From an uncultured Phycisphaerales bacterium (GTDB lineage Bacteria > Planctomycetota > Phycisphaerae > Tepidisphaerales > Tepidisphaeraceae), in contig CAVWLP010000002.1 of NCBI GenBank assembly GCA_963755915.1, positions 1,760,001-1,824,000 of the forward strand: 64,000 nucleotides of DNA. The letters run 5' to 3'. The notes below the pieces were generated by a model. That model saw only the letters and a program-made list of their open reading frames with translations, did no database searches and was not told the DNA's origin. The translations under genes and the position numbers were made by a program. Each line of letters opens with the position of its first letter. Position 1 is the first letter of the stretch. Shown here piece by piece: positions 35,249 to 46,950 of this stretch.

Positions 35249-38200
35249 CTAATATTCCAATTCTTCCACCGGCAAACTCATTGCGGGAGTCTCATCCGGA
35301 ATTTCCGCTACTTCCGATCCGGGGAAGAGCGGCTGCTGCTGGGCCTTGGTTCTTCGTGTTCCGTCGCCTGCCAGTTCAACCCGCCCATGGCCATTTAGAG
35401 CGAACTCCAGCTCTTCCTTCAGCGCGGGCGTGGCGCGGATCCACCACTGTTTGTCGAGGGCGATCAGGGCCCGCTTTTCGCCGGTCGCGGGGACGCTGAG
35501 ATATGTCTGGCAGTTTCCCTGGTGCTTGCTGAGAATGCCCTTGAGCTCGCGAAGGGTTTCGATTGCGCCGTCAATCCTGTCGATTTCGACTTTCACGCCG
35601 CGCGTGAAGCGCGCCATTGCCTGCGAAATCGGAATAAGTTCGTTGACGATAATTCCCGGCGTTTCCCGGCGCCGATCTACTTTTCCTTTTACGAAGACGA
35701 TCTGCTCGAGCGCGACGATGCCGGGCTGGGCTTCGTTGATCTTCTCAAGGCTCTCGGCAAAAATCGTGGCTTCGATCTGGCCGTCGAGATCTTCCAGCGT
35801 GATGATGCACATCGGCTGGCCGGCGGAACGGCCGGTCTTGGTGACGGCGCGCTTTACGCGGTTGATCAGGCCGCCGATCGTCACTTCCGTGCCCTCGGGC
35901 ATGGCTTTGATTTCGCGGGTGTTGGCCGTCGAATAATTCAGCAGCGCCGCCTCGTGCTCGGTGAGCGGATGATTCGTGATGTAGAAGCCAAGCAATTCCT
36001 TCTCGAATTTCAATAACTCGGCCCCGGCAAATTCGGGAATGTCCGGCAGTACATCGACCGGCCTGGAGGCGGTTTTGTTTTCGCCGCCGCCGAACATATT
36101 CAACTGCCCCATGCGCTTGTCCTGCTGCGACTGTTGGCCCATTTCCACGGCACGCTCGAGGATGGCGACAAGCTGGGAGCGCTTGGCCTTTAGCGAGGAA
36201 AACGCTCCGCATCTTACGAATGCCTCGACGGTGCTGCGCGTGACCTGCCGCTGGTCTACGCGTTCGCAGAAATCGTAGAGGCTGGTGAAGGCGCCAGTTT
36301 TCTTTCGCTCGGCGATGACCGCTTCGACCGCTTTTTCACCGACGCCGCGGACGGCCATCAGGCCAAAGCGAATGGCTGCCGATCCCTTTGCATAGACCGG
36401 CGTGAAATCTTTGTCGGAGACGTTGATGTCCGGCGGCCTGCACGGTGATTCCGCGCGTGCCGCTGGGCTGTGTGATCCGGCGGCATTCCTCGATGTATTC
36501 GACCACCTTGTCGGTCGAGCCCATTTCGAACGTCAGCAGGGCGGCCATGTATTCGACGGGATGATAGGTCTTCATATAGCGCCGTCTGAAACGCGATGAT
36601 GGCGTAGCGCGTGGAGTGGCTCTTGTTGAAGCCGTAGCCGCCGAATTTCAGGATCAGCTCAAAAATATCCTCGGCCTTCGACTTGCTGACGCCGTTTGCC
36701 TCGGCGCCTTTGAGGAAGTCGGGCTTGTATTTGGCGATGACGTCGGATTGTCTTTTTGCTGATGGCCTTGATCAGTTTGTAGGCGGCGCTCAGCTCGATG
36801 CCGCCGAGCTGGTTGAAAATCTGCATCACCTGTTCCTGGTAGACCATGATGCCGTAGGTTTCGGCGAGGATGCGGTCCATGATCGGATGGACCTGCGGCA
36901 CGGGCTCTTTGCCGTGCTTGCGATTGCAGTAGAGCGGAATCAGCTCCATCGGCCCGGGGCGATAGAGGGCGTTGGCGGCGATCAGATCTTCCAGCCGGTC
37001 CGGCTGCATCTTCATCAGCAGGTCCTGCATTCCGCCGGATTCAAACTGGAAAATGCCTTTGGTTTCGCCGCGGCAAAAGAGGTCGAGGACTTTTTGTCGG
37101 TGAAATCGACCTTCTCGATGTCGATGTCGATTCCCTTGGTCTGCTTTACAAGCTCGATGGCGCGCTGAAGCGAGCGTGAGCGTGCGCAGGCCGAGAAAAT
37201 CCATTTTCAGCAGGCCGACTTTTTCGACGATTGGGCCTTCGAATTGGGTGAGAAGATCGTCGCCGCTTTTGTAGAGCGGGACAAATTCATCCAGCGGCTG
37301 ATCGGCAATCACCACGCCGGCGGCGTGCATCCCCGCGTTGCGGCAAAGGCCTTCCAGCCTTTTGCCGATCTCGATGATCTGCTGAACCTGCGAATCCTCT
37401 TTAAAGAGCTTGGCTAAATCCGGCGACTGGGAGAGGGCCTTGTCGAGATTCATCCCGGGGACGCCGGGAATCAGCTTGGTGATTTTGTCGGTGACCGCCA
37501 GGGGCACGCCGAGGACGCGGCCGACATCTTTGCAGACCGCGCGGGCGGCGAGCGTGCCGAAGGTGATGATCTGGGCGACGTGCCCATATTTGTTGCGCAC
37601 GTATTCGATGATCTTCCCGCGGCCCTCCTGGCAGATATCGATATCGATATCAGGCATTTCATTTCGGCTCGGATCCATGAACCGCTCGAAGAGCAGGCCG
37701 TATTTGATCGGATCGACATTGCACAGGCCGAGCAGATATCCGACCATCGTGCCGACGCCGGAGCCTCTGGCGCCGACGGGAATTCCCTCTTTGCGGGCGA
37801 AGTTGCAGAAATCCCAGACGATCAGGAAGTAGGAGCAGAAATTCTTGCTGGTGATGATCTTCAGTTCGTAGTCCAGCCGCTTGCGGATTTCCTCGGAAAC
37901 CTCGCGCGTGCCGTATCGCCACTGGAGGCCCTCCTCGCAAAGCTGGCGAAGATATCGAGCGTCTTCGGGCGCATCGGCGGACGATTCGTCCTTGATTGCG
38001 CCTTTGGGCACGCGATAGACCGGGGCATGGCGCTTGCTGAAATCGAGCGTGACATCGCACATGGCGGCGATTCGCGAGGTGTTTTCGATCGCCTGGTCGA
38101 AGCTGCCCCAGTGCCTCGGCCATTTCCTGCGGGCTTTTGAGATAGAGCTCCGTGGGGTATTTCAGGCGGCTCTCGTCCGTAATCAGCTTCCCCATGCTGA

Positions 38201-38882
38201 TGCAGCAGAGAATATCGTGGGCGTGGTGGTCCTCTTTTTTCAGAAAATGGACGTCGTTGGTCGCCACCAGCCCAACGCCGAGCTTTTTCGCCAGCTCGGC
38301 AAGCTCGGGATTGACGCGTTCTTGTTCCTCGACGTGTTTCTGCACTTCGATGAAGAATCGATCCGGTCCGAAAATGTCCAGATAGGTTTCGGCGATTTTT
38401 TTCGCGGCCTTCGCGTCGCGCCGGGTGAGGCATGAGGGAATCTCGCCGCCGAGGCAGGCGCTGGTGGCGATCAATCCCTCCCGGTATTCCCGAAGAATTT
38501 CCTTATCGATCCGCGGCTTGTAATAGAAACCCTCCCGATACGCGAGGCTCGAAAGCTTGATGAGGTTCTGATACCCCTTCAGATTCTGGCATAAAAGGAT
38601 GAGGTGATAAGCGGCGTCGCTGCCGGTTCCGCTGGCGCTGCTGCGGTCGCGGCGATCGCCCGGCGCCATGTAGGCTTCCATTCCCAGGATCGGCTTGATC
38701 CCGGCCTTGTTGCATTCGTTGAAGAACTCGACGACCCCGAACATGCACCCGTGATCGGTGATCGCCAGGCTGTCCATCCCCAGTTCCTTGGCGCGTCCGA
38801 CCAGCTCGGGGATTTTGCTGGCGCCGTCCAGCAGGGAGTAATGCGTGTGGCAATGCAGATGAACAAAGCTTCCTCGATCCAT
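35249..38882 (-). CDS. dnaE: DNA polymerase III alpha subunit (several frameshifts)
   Basis: FVHLHCHTHYSLLDG PHP domain, RGSG, MPDIDID, GMHAAGV, KMDFLGL, YQEQVMQ, C-terminal OB fold. Confidence 0.97.
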
Positions 38883-38974
38883 GGAGCGATTGTTAAGCGC
38901 TCCACCCCGCAAGTAAAGCCCCGGAATTCGATCCTTCGAAATCCCGCTTTTTCGGCTATATTCTTAAGTCCGCC

Positions 38975-40140
38975 ATGGCAAAAGCTGATAAACCTTCAAA
39001 GCCGGCCCAGCGCGAAACCGGAAGAAAGCATGGCTTCAAAAATTCAACTCGCCGGAAGGATGCGGGGGGCTTTGCGTTCGCTCGTCCCCGTAGCGCTCAA
39101 CATTGCTTCAGCCGGCGGCGATTTCGAACCCCTCGAACACCAAGGTCTTCGCGCCGCTGCCTGCGCGACTGGCCTGACGATCCGCAATTTATTCCTGGCT
39201 GGAATTCGCTGCTCAAGCAGAATCCCTGGGCCACGGTTTTTCGCTCGCCCGCCTGGCAGTCCGCGGTGGTTAACGAATTCGTTCCCGCCGGGCTCTTCCG
39301 TTTGATCACCGTTTCCCGAAACGACGAGCTGCTGGCGGTTTTGCCGCTGGCGCTTAACACCGCCTCCATGCTCGAAACGCCTGGCCGATGGGTTACCGAC
39401 TATCTCGATTCTCTCGTTGATGCCCAATCTGCCGAGGCGTGCTGGGAAATCATCCTCGGTCTGCTCGGTAACCTGTGGGACTGGTCCGTGGGCGCGGTGG
39501 TCTTTCATCACGTCCGGGCGGATTCGAACATGCGTCAGATTCTCCCGGTACTGGGGCCCAAGTTCGGATTCCAATACCAGGAATCCCTTACCACCAGCGC
39601 CCTTATCTGGAGCTACCCAAAACCTGGGACGAATATCTTGCCTCCATCGATTCCCACGAGCGCAAGGAGATGAAGCGTAAGGTGCGAAACGCCCAGACCA
39701 AGGCCAATCTCCAGTGGCGGACGTTCCGCACGGAAGAGGAATTGCTCCCGGCGCTGGAGCGCGCTCTTTCGGCCATGCGGCAATCCGAGGCCCCAAAGGC
39801 CGATTTCACGGATGAGGTTCTCGTGGGCTTCCTCAACCGGCTCTGTCCGGTGCTCTGCCGGCAGGGGGATTTCTTTCTACAGGAACTGGTTTTGGAAGAT
39901 AAGCCCTCCGCGTGGCTGCTTGGGCTGCCCAGCGAACGCGGGCCGATGATTTACAACACCGCCTACGATTTCACGCAGAAGCAGTGGAGCCCTGGAATCG
40001 TGGCGTTTGCAATGTCGATCCAGGAGGCCATCACGGCCGGCGCGCCGGTTTACAATTTTCTCCGCGGCGCTGAGGAGTATAAAGACCGGCTCGGTGCTAA
40101 AGACCTCCAACTGCTCAAGATTCAGCTCATTCCGACCTGA
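38975..40140 (+). CDS. GNAT family N-acetyltransferase, CelD/BcsL-like (frameshifted; start uncertain)
   Basis: WNSLL..TVF.SPAW, TDYLD, PYLELPKTWDEYL, WSPG, YNFLRGAEEYK. Confidence 0.85.
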
Positions 40141-40467
40141 GTTCAGCCACCCCGTCAGCAACCCGCCTCGGCGTTAAGACATCCCTTCCGAAGGGCTTAA
40201 TTTAGGTATATGATCGCCTTATCGGACGATTGAGCCCCTGAAATTGGCCTGATCGGGCGATGTGGTGTATATCCATGATTGAGCGGAATACGCTGCGGTG
40301 AATCATCGAGGATTCGCCGTTTTGATCATCATCTGCAATTCGCGGCCGCCTTCCCACGGAAGGATCACGCAGCCGCAGCGAAGGGCCAGAAGAGTGCGTA
40401 GCACGTTGGGGCCGTCGCGGGATTGAAGGATTTGAACAACTTGTTGTTGGGAGACGAATGGACCGCC

Positions 40468-41682
40468 ATGACTGAGCGGACGCTTCACATTTCGCCGGAC
40501 CACTCCTCACGCGAGGATCGGTTCGATCGCTTTCGCCTGATCGGGTGGTGGGACCAGTCCCGCCTGGCCGCGGCGAAGGTGCTCGTTGTCGGGGCGGGTG
40601 CGCTCGGCAACGAAATCATCAAGAACCTGGCGCTGCTGGGCGTGGGGAATATTCTCGTCGCCGATCTCGACCGGATTGAGAATTCCAATCTTTCGCGCTC
40701 CGTGCTTTACCGCGAATCGGACAATGGGCGTTTCAAGGCTGAAGTTGCCGTCGAAACGGCCCGGTCCATTTATCCCGACATCCGGGCGCACGCGTTTAAC
40801 GGGAATATCGTTCACGACCTGGGCATGGGCGTTTTCCGCTGGGCGGACGTTGTGATCGCGGGGCTGGATAATCGCGAAGCGCGGCTCACGATCAATCGCT
40901 ATTGCCACAAAGTCAATCGCCCGTGGATCGACGGGGCGATCGAAGCCATTGCCGGCACGGCCCGGGTTTTCCTGCCGGGCGACGGGCCCTGCTATGAATG
41001 CACGATGTCGCAGACGGATTGGCAGCTTCTCCAGGCCCGCCGGTCGTGCAATCTGCTGACGCGCTCGGAGATGGAGCAGGGGAAGACGCCGACGACGCCG
41101 ACCATCGCGTCGATTATTGCGGCGGTTCAGTGCCAGGAGGCGGTGAAGCTGATTCACGGGCTGCCGACGATCGCCGGCCGGGGGTGGGTATTTGAGGGTC
41201 TTTCCGCGGATTCGTACCTGGTCGATTACCAGCGGAAGGAAGATTGCCTGAGCCACGAAACACTTGACGAAATTCATTCGCTCGACGCCGGCGTGGAAGA
41301 GATGCCGATCGGCGATTTGCTGAACGAAGCGCGGCGGCTGGTGCCTGGCGCTCAACTGGAACTCGGCCGCGAAGTGCTTCAGTCGCTGGACTGTCCGCGC
41401 TGCGGCCAATCGGAAGAACTGTTTGTTTCGCTCGGAAAAGTCCGTGCGGAGAAGGCGTTTTGCCCGAACTGTTCCGGCGTCCGCCGGAGCGTCAAAAGCT
41501 TTTTCCAGATCGGAAGCGAAAGGGGATTGCTGAACCGGACGCTTGCCCAGATCGGCGTGCCGCCGCTGGACATCGTCATCGCCCGAAACGGCGCCCAAGC
41601 CGTCGGGCTAGAACTGGCCGCGGACCAGAAACGCGTCCTCGGCCCGCTTGTTTTAGAAACGGAGGCTCTGTCATGGGAGTAA
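40468..41682 (+). CDS. ThiF/MoeB-family E1 ubiquitin-activating-like enzyme
   Basis: VVGAGALGNE, DLDRIENSNLSR, GLDNREAR, PCYEC, candidate catalytic Cys in RRSC, C-terminal CPRC/CPNC. Confidence 0.92.
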   Translation: MTERTLHISPDHSSREDRFDRFRLIGWWDQSRLAAAKVLVVGAGALGNEIIKNLALLGVGNILVADLDRIENSNLSRSVLYRESDNGRFKAEVAVETARSIYPDIRAHAFNGNIVHDLGMGVFRWADVVIAGLDNREARLTINRYCHKVNRPWIDGAIEAIAGTARVFLPGDGPCYECTMSQTDWQLLQARRSCNLLTRSEMEQGKTPTTPTIASIIAAVQCQEAVKLIHGLPTIAGRGWVFEGLSADSYLVDYQRKEDCLSHETLDEIHSLDAGVEEMPIGDLLNEARRLVPGAQLELGREVLQSLDCPRCGQSEELFVSLGKVRAEKAFCPNCSGVRRSVKSFFQIGSERGLLNRTLAQIGVPPLDIVIARNGAQAVGLELAADQKRVLGPLVLETEALSWE

Positions 41683-42483
41683 CGCAATCCACTGCCACGG
41701 AAACCGAAAATAGCGGCGGACTCGACTTCGCCCACCTGCCGCGCCGCGAGCTGATCAAGCTCAACGGCCTGCGCAGCGTCTCTTTCCAGGTCGTTGCCCG
41801 CCAGTCGGCGCTCAACCGCATTCACGTTCACGGCGATTCGTCGCCGCGCGGAAGTCTGCGGCGTGCTCGTCGGGGATGTTTATCACGACGAAACCGGTCC
41901 CTTCCTGCTTATCGAGCACATCATCGAAGGACAGGCCGCCACCGGCAGCGCCGGGCAGGTGACCTTCACCGCCGACACCTGGCAGCACATTCAGCTCCTG
42001 ATGGATCGGCAGTATCCGGACCTCCGCATCGTTGGGTGGTATCACACGCATCCGGGGCATGGGATCTTCCTCTCCGAGATGGACGTTTTCCTGCACGAGA
42101 GCTTCTTTGGTCTTCCCTGGCAGGCGGCGTTGGTTTATGACCCGCGCAGCGGCGATGAGGGGATCTTCAGCGCCCATGAGGGACAGGCGCACCGCCTTGA
42201 ATATGTGGTCGAATCGGACGAGCCTTCGGTCAGTGGGCCACCTTCGCCGGTGCTTTCGCCGGAGGCAGCGGCGCCTCTTTCAACAATTGAGCCGGTGCAG
42301 ACGAAGGCCAATGCTCCGCTGGCTTACAAGCGGAAACGGCCGGTCTGGGTGCCGATGGGCAAAATGGTGCTGGCTTTTATCGGACTAGTCCTGTTTGTGG
42401 CCATGGGCGGGCTGCTGGGCCTGCTTATCCGAATGCAGCATTTACAGCTTCCCTATTGGATTCAGCAGATGGCTCATGGATAA
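41673..42483 (+). CDS. JAB/MPN+ (Mov34) metallo-isopeptidase with C-terminal TM helix (frameshift ~41845)
   Basis: EVCGVLVG...IVGWYHTHPGHGIFLSEMD JAMM motif; hydrophobic tail MVLAFIGLVLFVAMGGLLGLLI. Confidence 0.92.
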
Positions 42484-42673
42484 TCTATGGGCGTGGTAAT
42501 GGGTTAACTGCGTGTAGCCCCAGGTTGGCGAGGCTCGATGTTGAGCCTGCTCAGGCTTCTGGGGGTTAACCCATTGCCTCCTGCCCCAATGGATTGGCGC
42601 AACGATTTTTGAGCCCTGATCCGGCCCGCTGGGATTGTCGGCCGTGCATGGCGTTTTGTTTGCGGCAGTTCGC

Positions 42674-43758
42674 ATGGCCAGCGTCGTTATCCATTCAGAA
42701 GAGCCCATCCAGGCTGCGTCTTTTTCCAGCGCGTCCTGATCGGGCGCAAGCCTTTCAACGGGATCCAGTTTGGGCAGCGAATCGTTTCCAGGATCCACGC
42801 CTGGATCGACAAGGACGGCGACGACTTTTATATCCGCGACGCCCGCAGCCGCGGGGGGACCTTCGTCAACGGGAAGCGCACCAACGGAAAGATCATTCTG
42901 CACGACGGGGATGAGATTCGCATCGGCACGTCGAAGATGACGTTTCACGACAGCGACGAAATTCCCGAGCACGCAGTAACCTTCCAGATTGCCGAGGACG
43001 GGACCAATCCGGGATTTGAGGATCCGGGAATTCTCATTGCCTGCGAGGCGTGCAGCGCACCGATGTGGGTGCCGGCGAGCATGGCGGGGGCCTTTGGGCG
43101 ATGCGGGATTTGCAGCGGGGAGATCAATGTTCCGGGGGAGCCGGCATCGGGCATCCGCCGGCCGCTGACGCCGAACGATTCGATTGTCGATATGCCGGCA
43201 ATCAAGCAGCCGGTCGATCTGGGGGAATCGGCACGGCCGTTTGATCCGCTGGCGGTGGATATGCCGCAGCCCAAGCCGGAGGCCGCCGCGAGAACCTGCG
43301 GCGTGTGCCAGAGCCCGATTCTTCCCGGAGAGGCGACCATCCCCTGCACGAGCTGCTCGCAGGTTTATCATGCCGAGTGCTGGTATGAAAATCGGGGATG
43401 CGCCGCGTATGGGTGCGCGCAGGTTGGGGCGCTGGATACGAAAACAGAGGAGCCGGAGCCGGCGCTTGCGGCCAGGACTGCCGCACCGGTCGCCGCGGCT
43501 CCCCAGCCGGCGTCGCGGCCATTTCCCTGGGATTTTGCCCTGCTGGGAGGGAGCGTTCTGGGCAGCGTCTTCGGTGCGTTCACGTTTGGGCTGCCGGCGC
43601 TTTTGGTGGGGGCTCTGTCGATTATCTATGCACGGCGGCAGCGAAATGGGAGTCATCGCCTTGCAACGATCGCTACGGTTATCTGTGTGGTGGGTGTGGC
43701 CGGTGGGGTTATCACCAGCAGCATCATCTTCAATGTTCCACTGTGGAGAGGCCGATGA
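42674..43758 (+). CDS. FHA + zinc ribbon + prokaryotic RING finger + TM protein (putative E3; indel ~42720)
   Basis: In frame upstream of ORF 42937: LIGRK..VSRIHA..RDARSRGGTFVNG..LHDGDEIRIG (FHA); CEAC..CGIC; CGVCQ..CTSC..YHAECW..GCAAYGC (RING-like); two to three TM helices. Confidence 0.85.
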
Positions 43759-44477
43759 TCCGCTTCTCCTGCCCGGGGTGTGGGCGGAAATTCACCGTCC
43801 CAAATCTCTACGCCGGCAAAAAAGCCAAGTGCAAGACCTGCGATCACGATATCGTGGTTCCGCAATCGACGGATGCGCCGCCGGTTCCGCAGCCGGTGAA
43901 ATCGAATGAAAAACTTCCCGTTCGCACGCGCCGGCTGATTGCCGAGCAGCAGCAGATGCGGCAGGCGTTCAGCAGGGGGGCGCTGATCCGGCTCATGCAC
44001 GTCATCGGCAGCCCGGCTGAGGTGTACAAGGTGGAGTTCAAAATCCGCGGGGTTGAATCGCTTGAATCCGACCAACCGGTCTTTCGCGGCAATCACGTCG
44101 CGGAGATCCGGCTGACGCGCGACTACCCGCGGCTGGCGCCGGCTTGCCGGATGCTTACGCCGATTTTTCACCCCAATATCGATGAATCGACGATCTGCGT
44201 CGGCGATCACTGGGTGGCGGGGGAGCGGCTGACCGACCTGGTTATCCGGATCGGGCAGATGATCGCCTATCAGCAGTACAACATTAAAAGCCCGCTCAAT
44301 GGTGAAGCGGCGATGTGGGCCGATCTCAATCCTGATTTGCTTCCGATCGATGCCCGCGATCTTTATCCGCCGGAACGGCCCAAGGAGCCGCAGCCGATTG
44401 CCGCTCCCGCTGGTGGATCTTCAATTGCTCCAAGTCCCGGCGACCAGAGTCCACGCACCGAAGGCGAGCAGGCATAA
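43755..44477 (+). CDS. Zinc ribbon + ubiquitin-conjugating enzyme E2 (UBC) domain
   Basis: MIRFSCPGC..AGKKAKCKTC; RRLIAE; DYPRLAP..LTPIFHPNIDESTIC..W; SPLNGEAA; ATGA overlap with the upstream stop. Confidence 0.92.
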   Translation: MIRFSCPGCGRKFTVPNLYAGKKAKCKTCDHDIVVPQSTDAPPVPQPVKSNEKLPVRTRRLIAEQQQMRQAFSRGALIRLMHVIGSPAEVYKVEFKIRGVESLESDQPVFRGNHVAEIRLTRDYPRLAPACRMLTPIFHPNIDESTICVGDHWVAGERLTDLVIRIGQMIAYQQYNIKSPLNGEAAMWADLNPDLLPIDARDLYPPERPKEPQPIAAPAGGSSIAPSPGDQSPRTEGEQA

Positions 44478-45952
44478 AACCAGGGCGAGGTAGAGCCGGC
44501 GCATAAAGCGGTCGAAGTCGGCAGTTCGGTGCGAATCGCGGCTGAGGAATTCCAGGAAATGCATCCGCTTGGCGATGCTGCCGTGGCACCAGCTTCGGGC
44601 GGCTACGGGGATATTGTTTACCGCGGCGACGCGCTCGAGGGCGGAACAGAAGACGGCCGCCCCGCGGCGTCCGACGTAATCCGCCTGGGTGTCCTCTTCC
44701 AACAGGGCCGTTTGCGTTGTCGGCCCATCCATCATTGCTTCGACGGTCGCGAAGGTTTCCTGCGGCTGATCGCGAGAAATCTCCTGGATCGCGCGGGCTG
44801 CGAAGACATCCGCCTGGCGCTCAAACTTGCGGCTGACAAATCCAAACGCCAGGGCGAAGAGCCCCATAGAGCCGGCCAGAAGCAGGGCGATCTGAACCGG
44901 CTCGACGAGCCAGTCGTAGCGGGCGTGGAGCGATGTCATCGCGTTGACGAGAATCTGGCCCGGCCCGGCGAAGGCGAGCATGAGGGCCATGATCGCGGCC
45001 ATGAGCCAAATCAGGTGGCGGTGCATGACGTGACCGATTTCGTGGGCGAAGATGGCCTCGATTTGCTCGTCGTGCATCGTCTCCAGCAGCAGGTCGCTGA
45101 GCAGCACGTAGCGGAAGCGCGGGACGAATCCCATGACGGCGGCGTTGCCCATCTGGTTTTCGGTTTTCCAGAGAAGCACGTCGCGATAGCGCACGCCATG
45201 CCGGCGGGCGATTTCGGCCAGCTTGTCTTTCAGGGGGCAATCGGGAAGGGGCTCGGTTCGCAGGACACGGCGGAGAATTTCGGGGCCGAAGATGATCAGC
45301 ATGCCGACGGCCGGGAGGGTTACCAGCGCATCGACCATGTCCTCGCGCTGAGCCATCGCCGGAACGAACTGCATAATCAGGGTGAGGCTATCGTGGACGG
45401 TCACCAGCAGAATTGCGGGGGCGAGCGTGAAAAGAAGCTGCAATCGGAGGTTTACCAGGAAATAGGTGCGGAAGGATGGTGGCCTCTGAACCGGGAGATT
45501 TTCGTTGAGCTGAATGAGAATGTTCTGTTCCCGGAGGGCTCGGTCGGCGGGGAACTGGGCCCACCAGATTCCCATCCAGGAGAGAAATGAGGGCAAACAG
45601 CCGAGAAGCAGGCCTGGCGCATCGAGGGGCAATCGCCCAAAGGCCGTGCGGTCGAGCACGGCGTCGATGAGCGCCCGCCAGCCCAATGCAAAGACTCCGA
45701 CGCCAAGCCACACGGGGATCAGAATCCTGCTGGCGTAGATGACGAAATTGAAAATCCGCAGGCGGCGCTGAACGTGATTGAAATGCGCCGCCCGGGCGAC
45801 GTGGCGGCTCCAGAGCCCGAGGACCAGAATCACAGCGGCATATCCGCCGAGAAAATCGCGCATCCAGCGGCGGACGAGAGTGCGCCGACCGGGGCGAGCT
45901 GCGGGCCGGTCAGCCAGATCACCAGGATAATGAGGGGCAGAAAGCGGGACAT
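44421..45952 (-). CDS. M48 (Ste24/HtpX-like) membrane metalloprotease (5' indel)
   Basis: NAAVMG, IFAHEIGH, SRKFERQAD, HGSIAKR. Confidence 0.9.
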
Positions 45953-46053
45953 CTTTGGTGCCGTTCAACCCTATCGGAGATAGCAAAAATTGTCGAGAAA
46001 ATTTCACGGTTCGGAAGCTGAAGGGACGGGGCGGAACCTGGCAATTTCGCGGT

Positions 46054-46950
46054 TTATTCGCCCATCTGCTGGGACGACGATTGGGCGTTGTGCAGATAGC
46101 CGGTAATCGTGACGGCACAGACCACACCCACGGCAATCACAACAGGAATTGCCCGGATTGCCAGCCTCACCCATCCGGATCGTTTTTTGATTGCGGGCAG
46201 ATCGCCGACCAGCGCCAGCAGCGGCGTGGCAAGCAATATCGCGATCCATCCCTGCTGTGCGCCGGTGAGAGTATCGTCCGTATAAAAATAGGCGTGCACG
46301 AGCAAGAGCTGGAGCATGAGGACGATGGCCTCGGAGAGGCCGTGCGAAAAGGTGATGCGCCTGCCTATCGCTTCGAGGATCACGACGATCAGGCAGACGA
46401 ATGCCAGGGAACCGGCCATCGCGCCGGAGCTGAGAATGTGCCAGCCGAGGGCCATGACGATGGCGGCAGCCGCGGAGATGCCGCCGAGGATCAGCGGTGC
46501 GGTCATCGCGGGCTCGGTCTGGGCAAGCGATTCGAATGCAAACCACCAGAGCAGGGTCGCCAGGGTGGAGACGTCGATCCACATTTCGGCGTCGTTGGGT
46601 GAGATTGATCTGGGAATCTGCGGCGCGAGCAGCAGACGAACCGCGAGGCGCCAGAAGATAATCAGCACGACAGTCCGGACCCAGATGGGGGGCCGGAAAA
46701 GGCTGTCGGCGAAGCTCAAAACGCCGGCCGTTACGCCGAAATAGAAGAGGAGATAGAGGACATTGGCCGAGGGCGGCCAGCCGGGTTTGGTCTCGAGGTT
46801 CCAGAAGGCGATTCCAAACCCGGCTGCCGCCGCCAGTCCCAGGACGCACCGGGCGGTGGGATGCAGCTTCCACAGCAGCAGGGCGATGACGGCGACCAAC
46901 AGCGCCGGCACGACCAGGCCACCGACGATTTGCGTTCCGGTGAACGGCAT
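46054..46950 (-). CDS. Hypothetical polytopic membrane protein
   Basis: About ten hydrophobic segments, no motif recognised. Confidence 0.75.
   Translation of the reverse strand: MPFTGTQIVGGLVVPALLVAVIALLLWKLHPTARCVLGLAAAAGFGIAFWNLETKPGWPPSANVLYLLFYFGVTAGVLSFADSLFRPPIWVRTVVLIIFWRLAVRLLLAPQIPRSISPNDAEMWIDVSTLATLLWWFAFESLAQTEPAMTAPLILGGISAAAAIVMALGWHILSSGAMAGSLAFVCLIVVILEAIGRRITFSHGLSEAIVLMLQLLLVHAYFYTDDTLTGAQQGWIAILLATPLLALVGDLPAIKKRSGWVRLAIRAIPVVIAVGVVCAVTITGYLHNAQSSSQQMGE

Follow-up and report, generated by a model that had tools for sequence, protein, structure and literature searches.

The DNA analysed here (the window) is a stretch of 64 000 nucleotides, positions 1 760 001 to 1 824 000 of the forward strand of contig CAVWLP010000002.1 (assembly GCA_963755915.1), from an uncultured Phycisphaerales bacterium of the Planctomycetota. 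At 42674..43758 on its plus strand lies a gene for a protein that joins an FHA domain, a zinc ribbon, a RING-like finger and a membrane anchor. It is the third of four adjacent genes, the others encoding an E1-like adenylating enzyme, a JAB/MPN peptidase and an E2 conjugating enzyme. We put at about 60% the probability that this is one gene for a membrane-anchored FHA-ribbon-RING protein, the presumptive E3 of a Planctomycetota-wide conjugation system for a ubiquitin-like protein (Ubl), and that the split of its reading frame in the assembly is artefactual.

The mechanical gene call is an open reading frame (ORF) at 42937..43758, of 273 aa. An earlier note on this DNA, made from the letters alone, had carried that frame upstream to 42674 as a single span. 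The frame of 42937 is open across 42613-43758 (381 aa) and has no ATG, GTG or TTG upstream of 42937; the ATG at 42674 sits in another frame, where it reads MASVVIHSEEPIQAASFSSAS and then, in this assembly, meets a stop at 42737-42739, so that the proposed span is not one frame as deposited. The start codon and the first 18 codons (MASVVIHSEEPIQAASFS) occupy 42674..42728 (+) in a frame different from that of the remainder of the gene, and the frame breaks at 42728..42729 (+), where the window is one G short (CCAGCGC, against CCAGGCGC in relatives) according to a DNA alignment of 12 loci and to a contig of sequencing run X1; a contig of run X5 has an extra A there.

Among 41 related genomes searched, all 12 of the same genus gave a strong match to the window gene, nearly full length in 11 and as two overlapping pieces in G012. 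Each of the 11 same-genus loci fetched (L002-L012) reads MAS[LV]VI from an ATG aligned with 42674 and continues in one frame through ...RVLIGRK into the FHA domain and the rest of the gene. No relative starts its protein at 42937, a start on which the earlier note had wanted a check. At the DNA level these relatives carry TCCAGGCGCGTC and the window TCCA-GCGCGTC, with one G fewer at 42728/42729. The missing G is located 3-4 nt beyond a run of T at 42720-42725, the run in which the break had previously been placed. Programmed -1 ribosomal slippage on that run (42721-42725) could in principle join both frames, and the protein would come out at the right length if the ribosome slipped by -1 on TTT (42722-42724). 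However, G001 has the same T-run within an intact frame, none of the 11 relatives needs a slip or keeps a two-frame arrangement, and the window differs from them by the G downstream and not in the run itself. The missing G and the intact frame of G001 rule out slippage for practical purposes, and we leave it scarcely any probability.

The break was also compared with contigs (assembled contigs, no raw reads) from four public sequencing runs. A 715-nt contig of run X1 covers 42706-43419 and has an extra G behind 42728, being otherwise identical over 714 bases. X1 is the run that matches best, with 95% of sampled words; it is possibly the source sample and is therefore not independent. Run X5, from a relative at roughly 93-95%, has an extra A behind 42729. 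X2 and X3 leave the break uncovered, with depth 0 over 42699-42812 (X2 stays at 0 up to 43610, while X3 is scattered beyond). No contig among the runs compared crosses the break without the G.

Two neighbouring genes bear on the quality of the assembly. The dnaE gene (window 35261-38918, minus strand) is matched by a 1245-aa gene of G010, DNA_pol3_alpha by Pfam, in five pieces in frames -3, -1, -2, -3 and -1, that is, with four frame changes within 3.66 kb. The GNAT (Acetyltransf_6) gene at 38951-40140 (+) encodes 479 aa in G010 but is broken here into two ORFs, 38975-39673 and 39475-40140, which overlap. An essential replicase gene cannot truly be broken four times, so indel errors must be frequent in this assembly (G000), which has a marker completeness of just 81% despite consisting of 3 contigs, a combination that fits such errors. 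Because the X1 contig has the G and dnaE shows four frame changes, the break is most likely an error of assembly or consensus, and we consider this very probable. Most likely, then, one gene occupies 42674-43758, and the lack of one G divides it into a stub of 21 codons and the 273-aa ORF.

A true mutation in the organism, or in part of its population, would instead leave a pseudogene, or a RING protein with a membrane anchor made from the Met at 42937. The deposited assembly does have the frameshifted reading, and a second X1 contig terminates exactly at 42729, as expected at a variant branch; a mixed population or a low-coverage break at the site may yet be involved. But the sole X1 contig that spans the site carries the G, the gene is intact in the closest relative, G001 (96% identical), and the fourfold break of dnaE in the same window shows indel errors to be common. 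We regard a true mutation as improbable. Operon or neighbour genes are likewise split into adjacent or overlapping ORFs in ten other loci (L022, L024, L026, L028, L033, L050, L053, L074, L081 and L094). These belong to one series of long-contig metagenome-assembled genome (MAG) records, and the pattern is inconspicuous in most other loci, so that across the series, too, gene splitting seems to stem from assembly and not from biology.

For the intact protein we used the 361-aa orthologue P0001 of G001, whose identity with the window is 96% where the two overlap. Its domain order is FHA, four-cysteine zinc ribbon, disordered linker, C4HC3 RING-like finger and hydrophobic C-terminal anchor. AlphaFold2, run on an alignment (A1) of 32 full-length homologues, gave a mean predicted local distance difference test score (pLDDT) of 79.

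The FHA domain comprises residues 1-95 of the intact protein (42674..42957, +), and its presence upstream of the called ORF, which the earlier note had proposed, is confirmed. The upstream part matches PF00498 with E 1.1e-16 and 61.4 bits (cut-off 20.7) over the full profile, 1-67; the match covers 42733-42927, or residues 41-105 of the translation from 42613, and P0001 scores 60.0 bits. The motifs IGR, SRIH, GTFVNG and GDEIRIG are all present. Over residues 1-110 the model has a pLDDT of 89-95, and Foldseek found 138 matches in the PDB at E <= 0.001, with FHA domains in every row listed; the best target TM-score, 0.90, is that of 3oun (root-mean-square deviation 1.6 A). The Gly-Arg, Ser-x-x-His and Asn residues of FHA domains contact phosphothreonine. 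In A1 the corresponding G24, R25, S39 and H42 do not vary, and N66 is kept in at least 90% of the sequences.

The fusion of FHA to RING, for which the earlier note had wanted a homologue search, is present in 11 of 11 same-genus loci and in 56 of the 77 loci that come from other species. At E <= 1e-30 the family counts 105 representatives (50% identity clusters) among 1.84 billion, and FHA and Prok-RING_1 are both listed for 61 of 115 database relatives, by a hand count in a precomputed Pfam column with a looser threshold. Public labels on relatives read 'FHA domain-containing protein' and, once, 'FHA domain/Prokaryotic RING finger family 1'. The tether to the membrane that the same note had proposed holds as well. 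The anchor (43534..43731, +) has two hydrophobic segments, 43534-43632 and 43660-43731, with Kyte-Doolittle 19-residue windows above 1.6 at residues 289-302 and 328-339, and the model places helices at 286-303, 307-322 and 329-352.

The finger (43297..43416, +) is a putative C4HC3 binuclear zinc finger (cross-brace) of the Prok-RING_1 or PHD-RING kind. Its eight presumed ligands, C209, C212, C225, C228, H233, C236, C243 and C248, spaced C-x2-C-x12-C-x2-C-x4-H-x2-C-x6-C-x4-C, are invariant in A1, as is W237. Its Pfam scores are below cut-off: PF14446 (Prok-RING_1) matches residues 227-268 of the translation from 42613 with 24.8 bits, and P0001 with 25.1, against a cut-off of 29.1, and PHD comes close at 21.1 bits. 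Folded alone from a separate alignment (A2; 12 rows, one from the unpublished genome G014), the finger had a pLDDT of 79. PHD and RING fingers head its fold matches, the best at E 0.076 and none at E <= 0.001, and the fold search is thus unable to separate PHD from RING in the predicted structure.

The gene is followed by that of the E2 (43755..44477, +), whose start overlaps the stop of the E3 gene in an ATGA. The E2 has an N-terminal zinc ribbon and matches UQ_con with E 2.3e-9 and 37.4 bits (cut-off 27); all 21 sequences aligned have H139, P140, N141 and C148. We predicted a complex of residues 112-258 of A1 with an E2 alignment (A3, 21 rows), alongside three controls. The pair scored 0.67 and the best of the 3 controls 0.00; among solved complexes 116 of 157 reach that mark, and among mismatched pairs 2 of 215. 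The runs share at least 41% of their contacts, and the partner pLDDT is at least 57. In the predicted interface, residues 210-214, 233-248 and 251 of the E3 (the loop at the first zinc, the helix that follows H233 and the final two ligands) meet residues 53-67, 125-126 and 152-158 of the E2. The E2 residues lie in a conserved segment ahead of the core and in loops about 23 residues before and 4-10 after Cys148, and they include R57, R59, R60, P125, W153, A155, G156 and E157, which are invariant in the 21 sequences. This arrangement is what we take to be the canonical surface of solved RING-E2 complexes. The prediction supports binding of the E2 through the finger, and the function as an E3, backed by gene context and by this predicted interface, is presumptive.

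The finger might instead be a PHD-like peptide-binding module, in which case the protein would be an adaptor and not a ligase. The C4HC3 ligand order, a PHD score near that of Prok-RING_1 with both sub-cut-off, and the PHD fingers among the top fold matches speak for such a module. Yet the gene is translationally coupled to that of the E2 through the ATGA overlap, an E2 gene is present in 61 of the 77 loci, and PF14446 is given for most homologues in the precomputed Pfam column. The predicted contact of the first zinc loop and the post-H233 helix with invariant residues in the N-terminal helix and the Cys148-flanking loops of the E2 also argues for a RING-type role. An adaptor therefore seems unlikely to us.

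Between the FHA domain and the finger lies the four-cysteine zinc ribbon CEAC...VP...AG...CGIC (43042..43113, +), with C124, C127, C144 and C147 invariant in A1. That it resembles the ribbon at the N-terminus of the E2, as had been suggested from the sequence, is real: hhalign, with profiles of 36 sequences for the E3 ribbon and 10 for that of the E2, aligned them over 37 columns with a probability of 98.2% and E 3.1e-14. In the control comparisons the probability was far lower, at 33.5% for the finger with the E2 ribbon and 3.8% for the finger with the E3 ribbon. The RING protein has the ribbon in 60 of the 77 loci and the E2 in 55, with both in 44, and we take the two ribbons, on profile similarity and distribution, to be homologous and co-inherited. 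Translated in six frames, the 6.6-Mb genome has 3 instances of a loose ribbon motif, namely the two ribbons themselves and an unrelated stretch rich in Cys, and 4 of a still looser one, the two ribbons and two other N-terminal ribbons; with so few occurrences, the ribbon as a common genome-wide module is ruled out. No ribbon residue is in the confident part of the predicted E2-E3 interface, which is neutral as to ribbon docking and so to the shared docking module that the earlier note had suggested.

The operon begins with the E1-like gene of the ThiF family (40423..41682, +; ThiF E 2.5e-53). Its exact start is uncertain: orthologues have 404-413 aa in G010, G014 and G001, and G004 has a longer ORF of 471 aa. 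The JAB/MPN peptidase gene follows (41794..42483, +; JAB E 5.3e-10), with the motif HTHPGH...SEMD and a C-terminal hydrophobic segment where hydropathy exceeds 1.6 at residues 183-199. The order E1, JAB, FHA-RING gene, E2 is the same in G010, G004, G001 and the unpublished G014, and the claim holds without G014. An M48 membrane peptidase gene (44421-46136, minus strand) converges on the E2 gene, a position kept in 12 of the 77 loci, mostly in the closest relatives.

The Ubl is encoded elsewhere in this genome. Three-frame translation of 40100-40620 contains no Ubl beside the E1 in the window, and Pfam searches of the genome gave for ubiquitin just one sub-threshold match elsewhere and for Prok_Ub none. 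When unassigned neighbour genes of the related loci were clustered, the top family was an ORF of about 90 aa upstream of the E1, present in 32 of the 77 loci and ending in ...LRLQPEITAG. It matches YukD (PF08817) with 49.4 bits (cut-off 27), and ubiquitin with a sub-cut-off 20.9 bits. The window's genome has this gene at C2:4666962-4667261 (hmmsearch E 1.3e-59), ending in ...EITAG and then a stop. Directly after it comes a gene for a multi-pass membrane protein with an FHA domain (G000:C2:4666962-4668636 for the two together, L017), spread over three frames in the assembly. All six parts of the system are thus present in the genome, at two places: in the window an E1, a JAB peptidase with a membrane anchor, the E3 and a ribbon-bearing E2, and at the distant site the YukD-type Ubl (...EITAG) and the multi-pass membrane protein, whose FHA is C-terminal. 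A second, different cluster, with an E1-like frame, an E2-like frame and a Ubl-like frame ending in ...SIDAG (hmmsearch E 6.9e-12), lies about 100 kb before the window at G000:C2:1658232-1661381.

The 77 loci come from a scan of species-representative genomes and were mapped with local profile searches, many of them on short contigs. Nearly all are from Planctomycetota, mostly Tepidisphaerales and other Phycisphaerae, with some from Pirellulaceae, Gemmataceae and Planctomicrobium; a few matches, in Ignavibacterium and Anaerolineales records, are to the RING and transmembrane (RING-TM) part only. The 56 loci with the fusion have FHA and RING-TM in one ORF, and 26 of them also have the multi-pass membrane-FHA gene. 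In 14 loci a RING-TM gene without FHA stands behind a gene for a multi-pass membrane protein of about 420 aa with a C-terminal FHA. Neither arrangement is seen in the remaining 7, among which L033 and L050 have a separate FHA ORF that runs into the beginning of the RING ORF, the picture expected from a frameshift. Partner genes were mapped as E1 in 49 loci, JAB in 52, E2 in 61 and Ubl in 32. Fetched loci show the order E1-JAB-(TM-FHA)-E3-E2, and elsewhere in Planctomycetota the six genes are joined in a single operon.

Some loci depart from this order or have further neighbours. Four Planctomycetota MAG records (L085, L086, L090 and L092) have three consecutive RING-TM genes without FHA and a separate gene for a membrane-FHA protein of about 360 aa; L086 and L092 have two E2 genes, L085 and L090 one, and one E2, which bears a ribbon, lies ahead of the Ubl. 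A gene for a Wzz chain-length determinant with a P-loop (BY-kinase-like) domain lies near the operon in 22 of 77 loci, in 19 of the 22 on the opposite strand (for example L066:1838-4054, minus). This Wzz-type gene is the next recurrent neighbour after the Ubl, by linkage or by plain synteny.

The FHA domain of the membrane partner provides a comparison for that of the E3. In 39 aligned sequences of the partner, Ser replaces the phosphate-contact Arg and Gly stands at the invariant-Ser position in at least 60%, while the His and Asn are kept. Since Arg and Ser are kept in the E3 FHA (32 of 32) and lost in the partner, selection appears to maintain phosphate binding on the E3 specifically. This argues for the E3 FHA as a true phosphothreonine binder, whatever its ligand. 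Selection of substrates by phosphorylation, as the earlier note had it, is plausible given these invariant residues, and we give about even odds to conjugation that is phospho-gated through a ligand that is either a substrate or a component of the system.

The FHA domain might also be a regulatory or assembly module and not a substrate selector. One candidate ligand would be the protein's own linker, phosphorylated at RPL-T-PND, with autoinhibition or oligomerisation as the outcome. Others would be the membrane-FHA partner and, bound without phosphate, the YukD-type Ubl, much as YukB holds YukD through its FHA domains in type VIIb secretion. The disordered linker contains RPLTPNDS (43159..43182, +), and T-x-x-D is a classic FHA ligand pattern. 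The motif has this form in 21 of 32 aligned homologues, and on its sequence pattern the site is a lead for phosphorylation; the other 11, which are more distant, lack it. In 26 of 77 loci the system includes two FHA proteins, and the Ubl belongs to the YukD family, whose YukD makes extensive contacts with the FHA domains of YukB in a cryo-EM study (excerpts of PMC12637312). According to the same excerpts these FHA domains hold the Ubl without phosphate, and for this reason FHA together with YukD need not mean phospho-reading. Against such a module stands the phosphate-contact pair of Arg and Ser, kept in every aligned E3 FHA and lost from the partner, which points to phosphothreonine binding with the ligand left unspecified. 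We consider such a regulatory or assembly role somewhat unlikely.

The enzymatic steps, the dependence on phosphorylation and the targets are what we infer from these parts. The E1 would activate the C-terminal glycine of the Ubl and hand the Ubl to Cys148 of the E2; the finger would bind the E2 at the membrane; the E3 FHA would bind phosphothreonine on a target or on a partner, so that conjugation would be gated by Ser/Thr phosphorylation; and the JAB peptidase would reverse the modification. The sub-cut-off finger scores, the indecisive fold search, the contig that ends at 42729 and the phosphate-free precedent of type VIIb, all given above, weigh against this account, as do three further points. 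The Ubl and membrane-FHA genes are unlinked to the window operon, 2.86 Mb away. The recurrent neighbour genes of the fetched loci include no Ser/Thr kinase or phosphatase. The proportions of loci with FHA are biased upward, one of the two scan patterns being an FHA motif. On the supporting side, the passing score of the predicted complex may mirror likeness to the many solved RING-E2 complexes and not binding by this copy.

We tentatively go one step further and propose a vertically inherited, membrane-bound, phosphothreonine-gated Ubl ligase of Planctomycetota, a functional analogue of RNF8 and CHFR, with ribbons docked on a platform; this joint reading is possible, though on the doubtful side. 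If true, the E3 FHA would read the mark of the phylum's Ser/Thr kinases and steer a YukD-type Ubl onto membrane or envelope proteins, and one dedicated zinc ribbon would dock E2 and E3 on a common platform, possibly the multi-pass protein with its phosphate-blind FHA. We know of no characterised bacterial RING-type Ubl ligase of this operon class, although no search was aimed at that question. In this family the interplay of Ser/Thr phosphorylation with Ubl conjugation could be tested outside eukaryotes on a compact system, the features open to dissection being an E3-fused FHA, a degenerate second FHA on a membrane partner and matched E2/E3 ribbons. For annotation, a 1-nt assembly error appears to have concealed a third of the gene, FHA included, and with dnaE broken four times in the window, ORF calls for this genome need frameshift-aware handling.

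The class of operons with E1, E2, JAB, Ubl and RING genes was already described in 2011, and the FHA-RING gene is a further member. Pfam describes the bacterial Prok-RING_1 versions as transmembrane. Burroughs, Iyer and Aravind (Mol Biosyst 2011) are reportedly to be credited with prokaryotic E1/E2/JAB/Ubl operons bearing Prok-RING_1 fingers, and their abstract is said to name YukD-like Ubls. Shared with that class are the separate, clustered E1, E2, JAB and RING-like genes, the YukD-type Ubl and the membrane anchor on the RING protein, whereas here the Ubl and membrane-FHA genes stand apart from the remaining parts, at a distance of 2.86 Mb. The FHA at the N-terminus of the RING protein, the additional membrane-FHA gene and the pairing of E2 and E3 ribbons are features of the present system that may already figure in the 2011 description. 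Related operons are carried by Planctomycetes, Actinobacteria and Acidobacteria (excerpts of PMC4197634). We found no description of a bacterial FHA-RING fusion in the portions of the literature searched, subscription journals lying outside its scope; in excerpts of PMC7159879 'prokaryotic RING' and 'FHA domain' both occur, in separate contexts.

Three other prokaryotic systems share parts with this one. The Caldiarchaeum system has a ubiquitin-like modifier beside its enzymes and a small soluble RING protein, and we know of no FHA domain, ribbon or membrane anchor in it. It resembles the operon here in being compact and in combining E1, E2, a RING-class E3 and a JAB-family peptidase. The archaeal operon, from Caldiarchaeum subterraneum (Ub, E1, E2, small RING and Rpn11), has been reconstituted in vitro (excerpts of PMC5654768). 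The type VIIb core (YukD with the FHA domains of YukB/EssC) likewise sets a YukD-family Ubl alongside FHA domains on membrane proteins, but there YukD is a non-covalent assembly factor, with no E1, E2 or RING (excerpts of PMC12637312), whereas the Ubl here ends in Gly directly before the stop and is encoded beside the E1 in 32 loci. Bil and type II CBASS have bacterial E1, E2 and JAB homologues as well. The system is not among the defence systems that PADLOC recognises: its E1 domain alone has matches there, the best to a CBASS E1-E2 model with 60.8 bits and one to BilD with 26.8 bits, and the E2, JAB, E3, Ubl and membrane-FHA proteins match no family at E <= 0.001. Unlike a sporadic defence island, the operon is found in 12 of 12 same-genus genomes.

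Eukaryotic FHA-RING ligases are known in RNF8, CHFR and Dma1. As in these, an N-terminal FHA domain and a RING-class finger further along stand on one polypeptide, which suggests phospho-dependent recruitment of the ligase. The finger here is C4HC3 rather than C3HC4, a membrane anchor and an extra zinc ribbon are added, and the modifier is YukD-like and not ubiquitin. The best solved relatives of the FHA domain are bacterial, namely EmbR (E 2.6e-13), GarA, Rv1747 and OdhI, and no RNF8 or CHFR chain is among the best 60 of 69 matched solved chains. The earlier note had likened the protein to RNF8 and CHFR; the likeness stands for the FHA-RING layout and falls for the family, given the C4HC3 finger and the bacterial FHA relatives listed. 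Most simply, the layout common to RNF8/CHFR and the FHA-RING protein is convergent.

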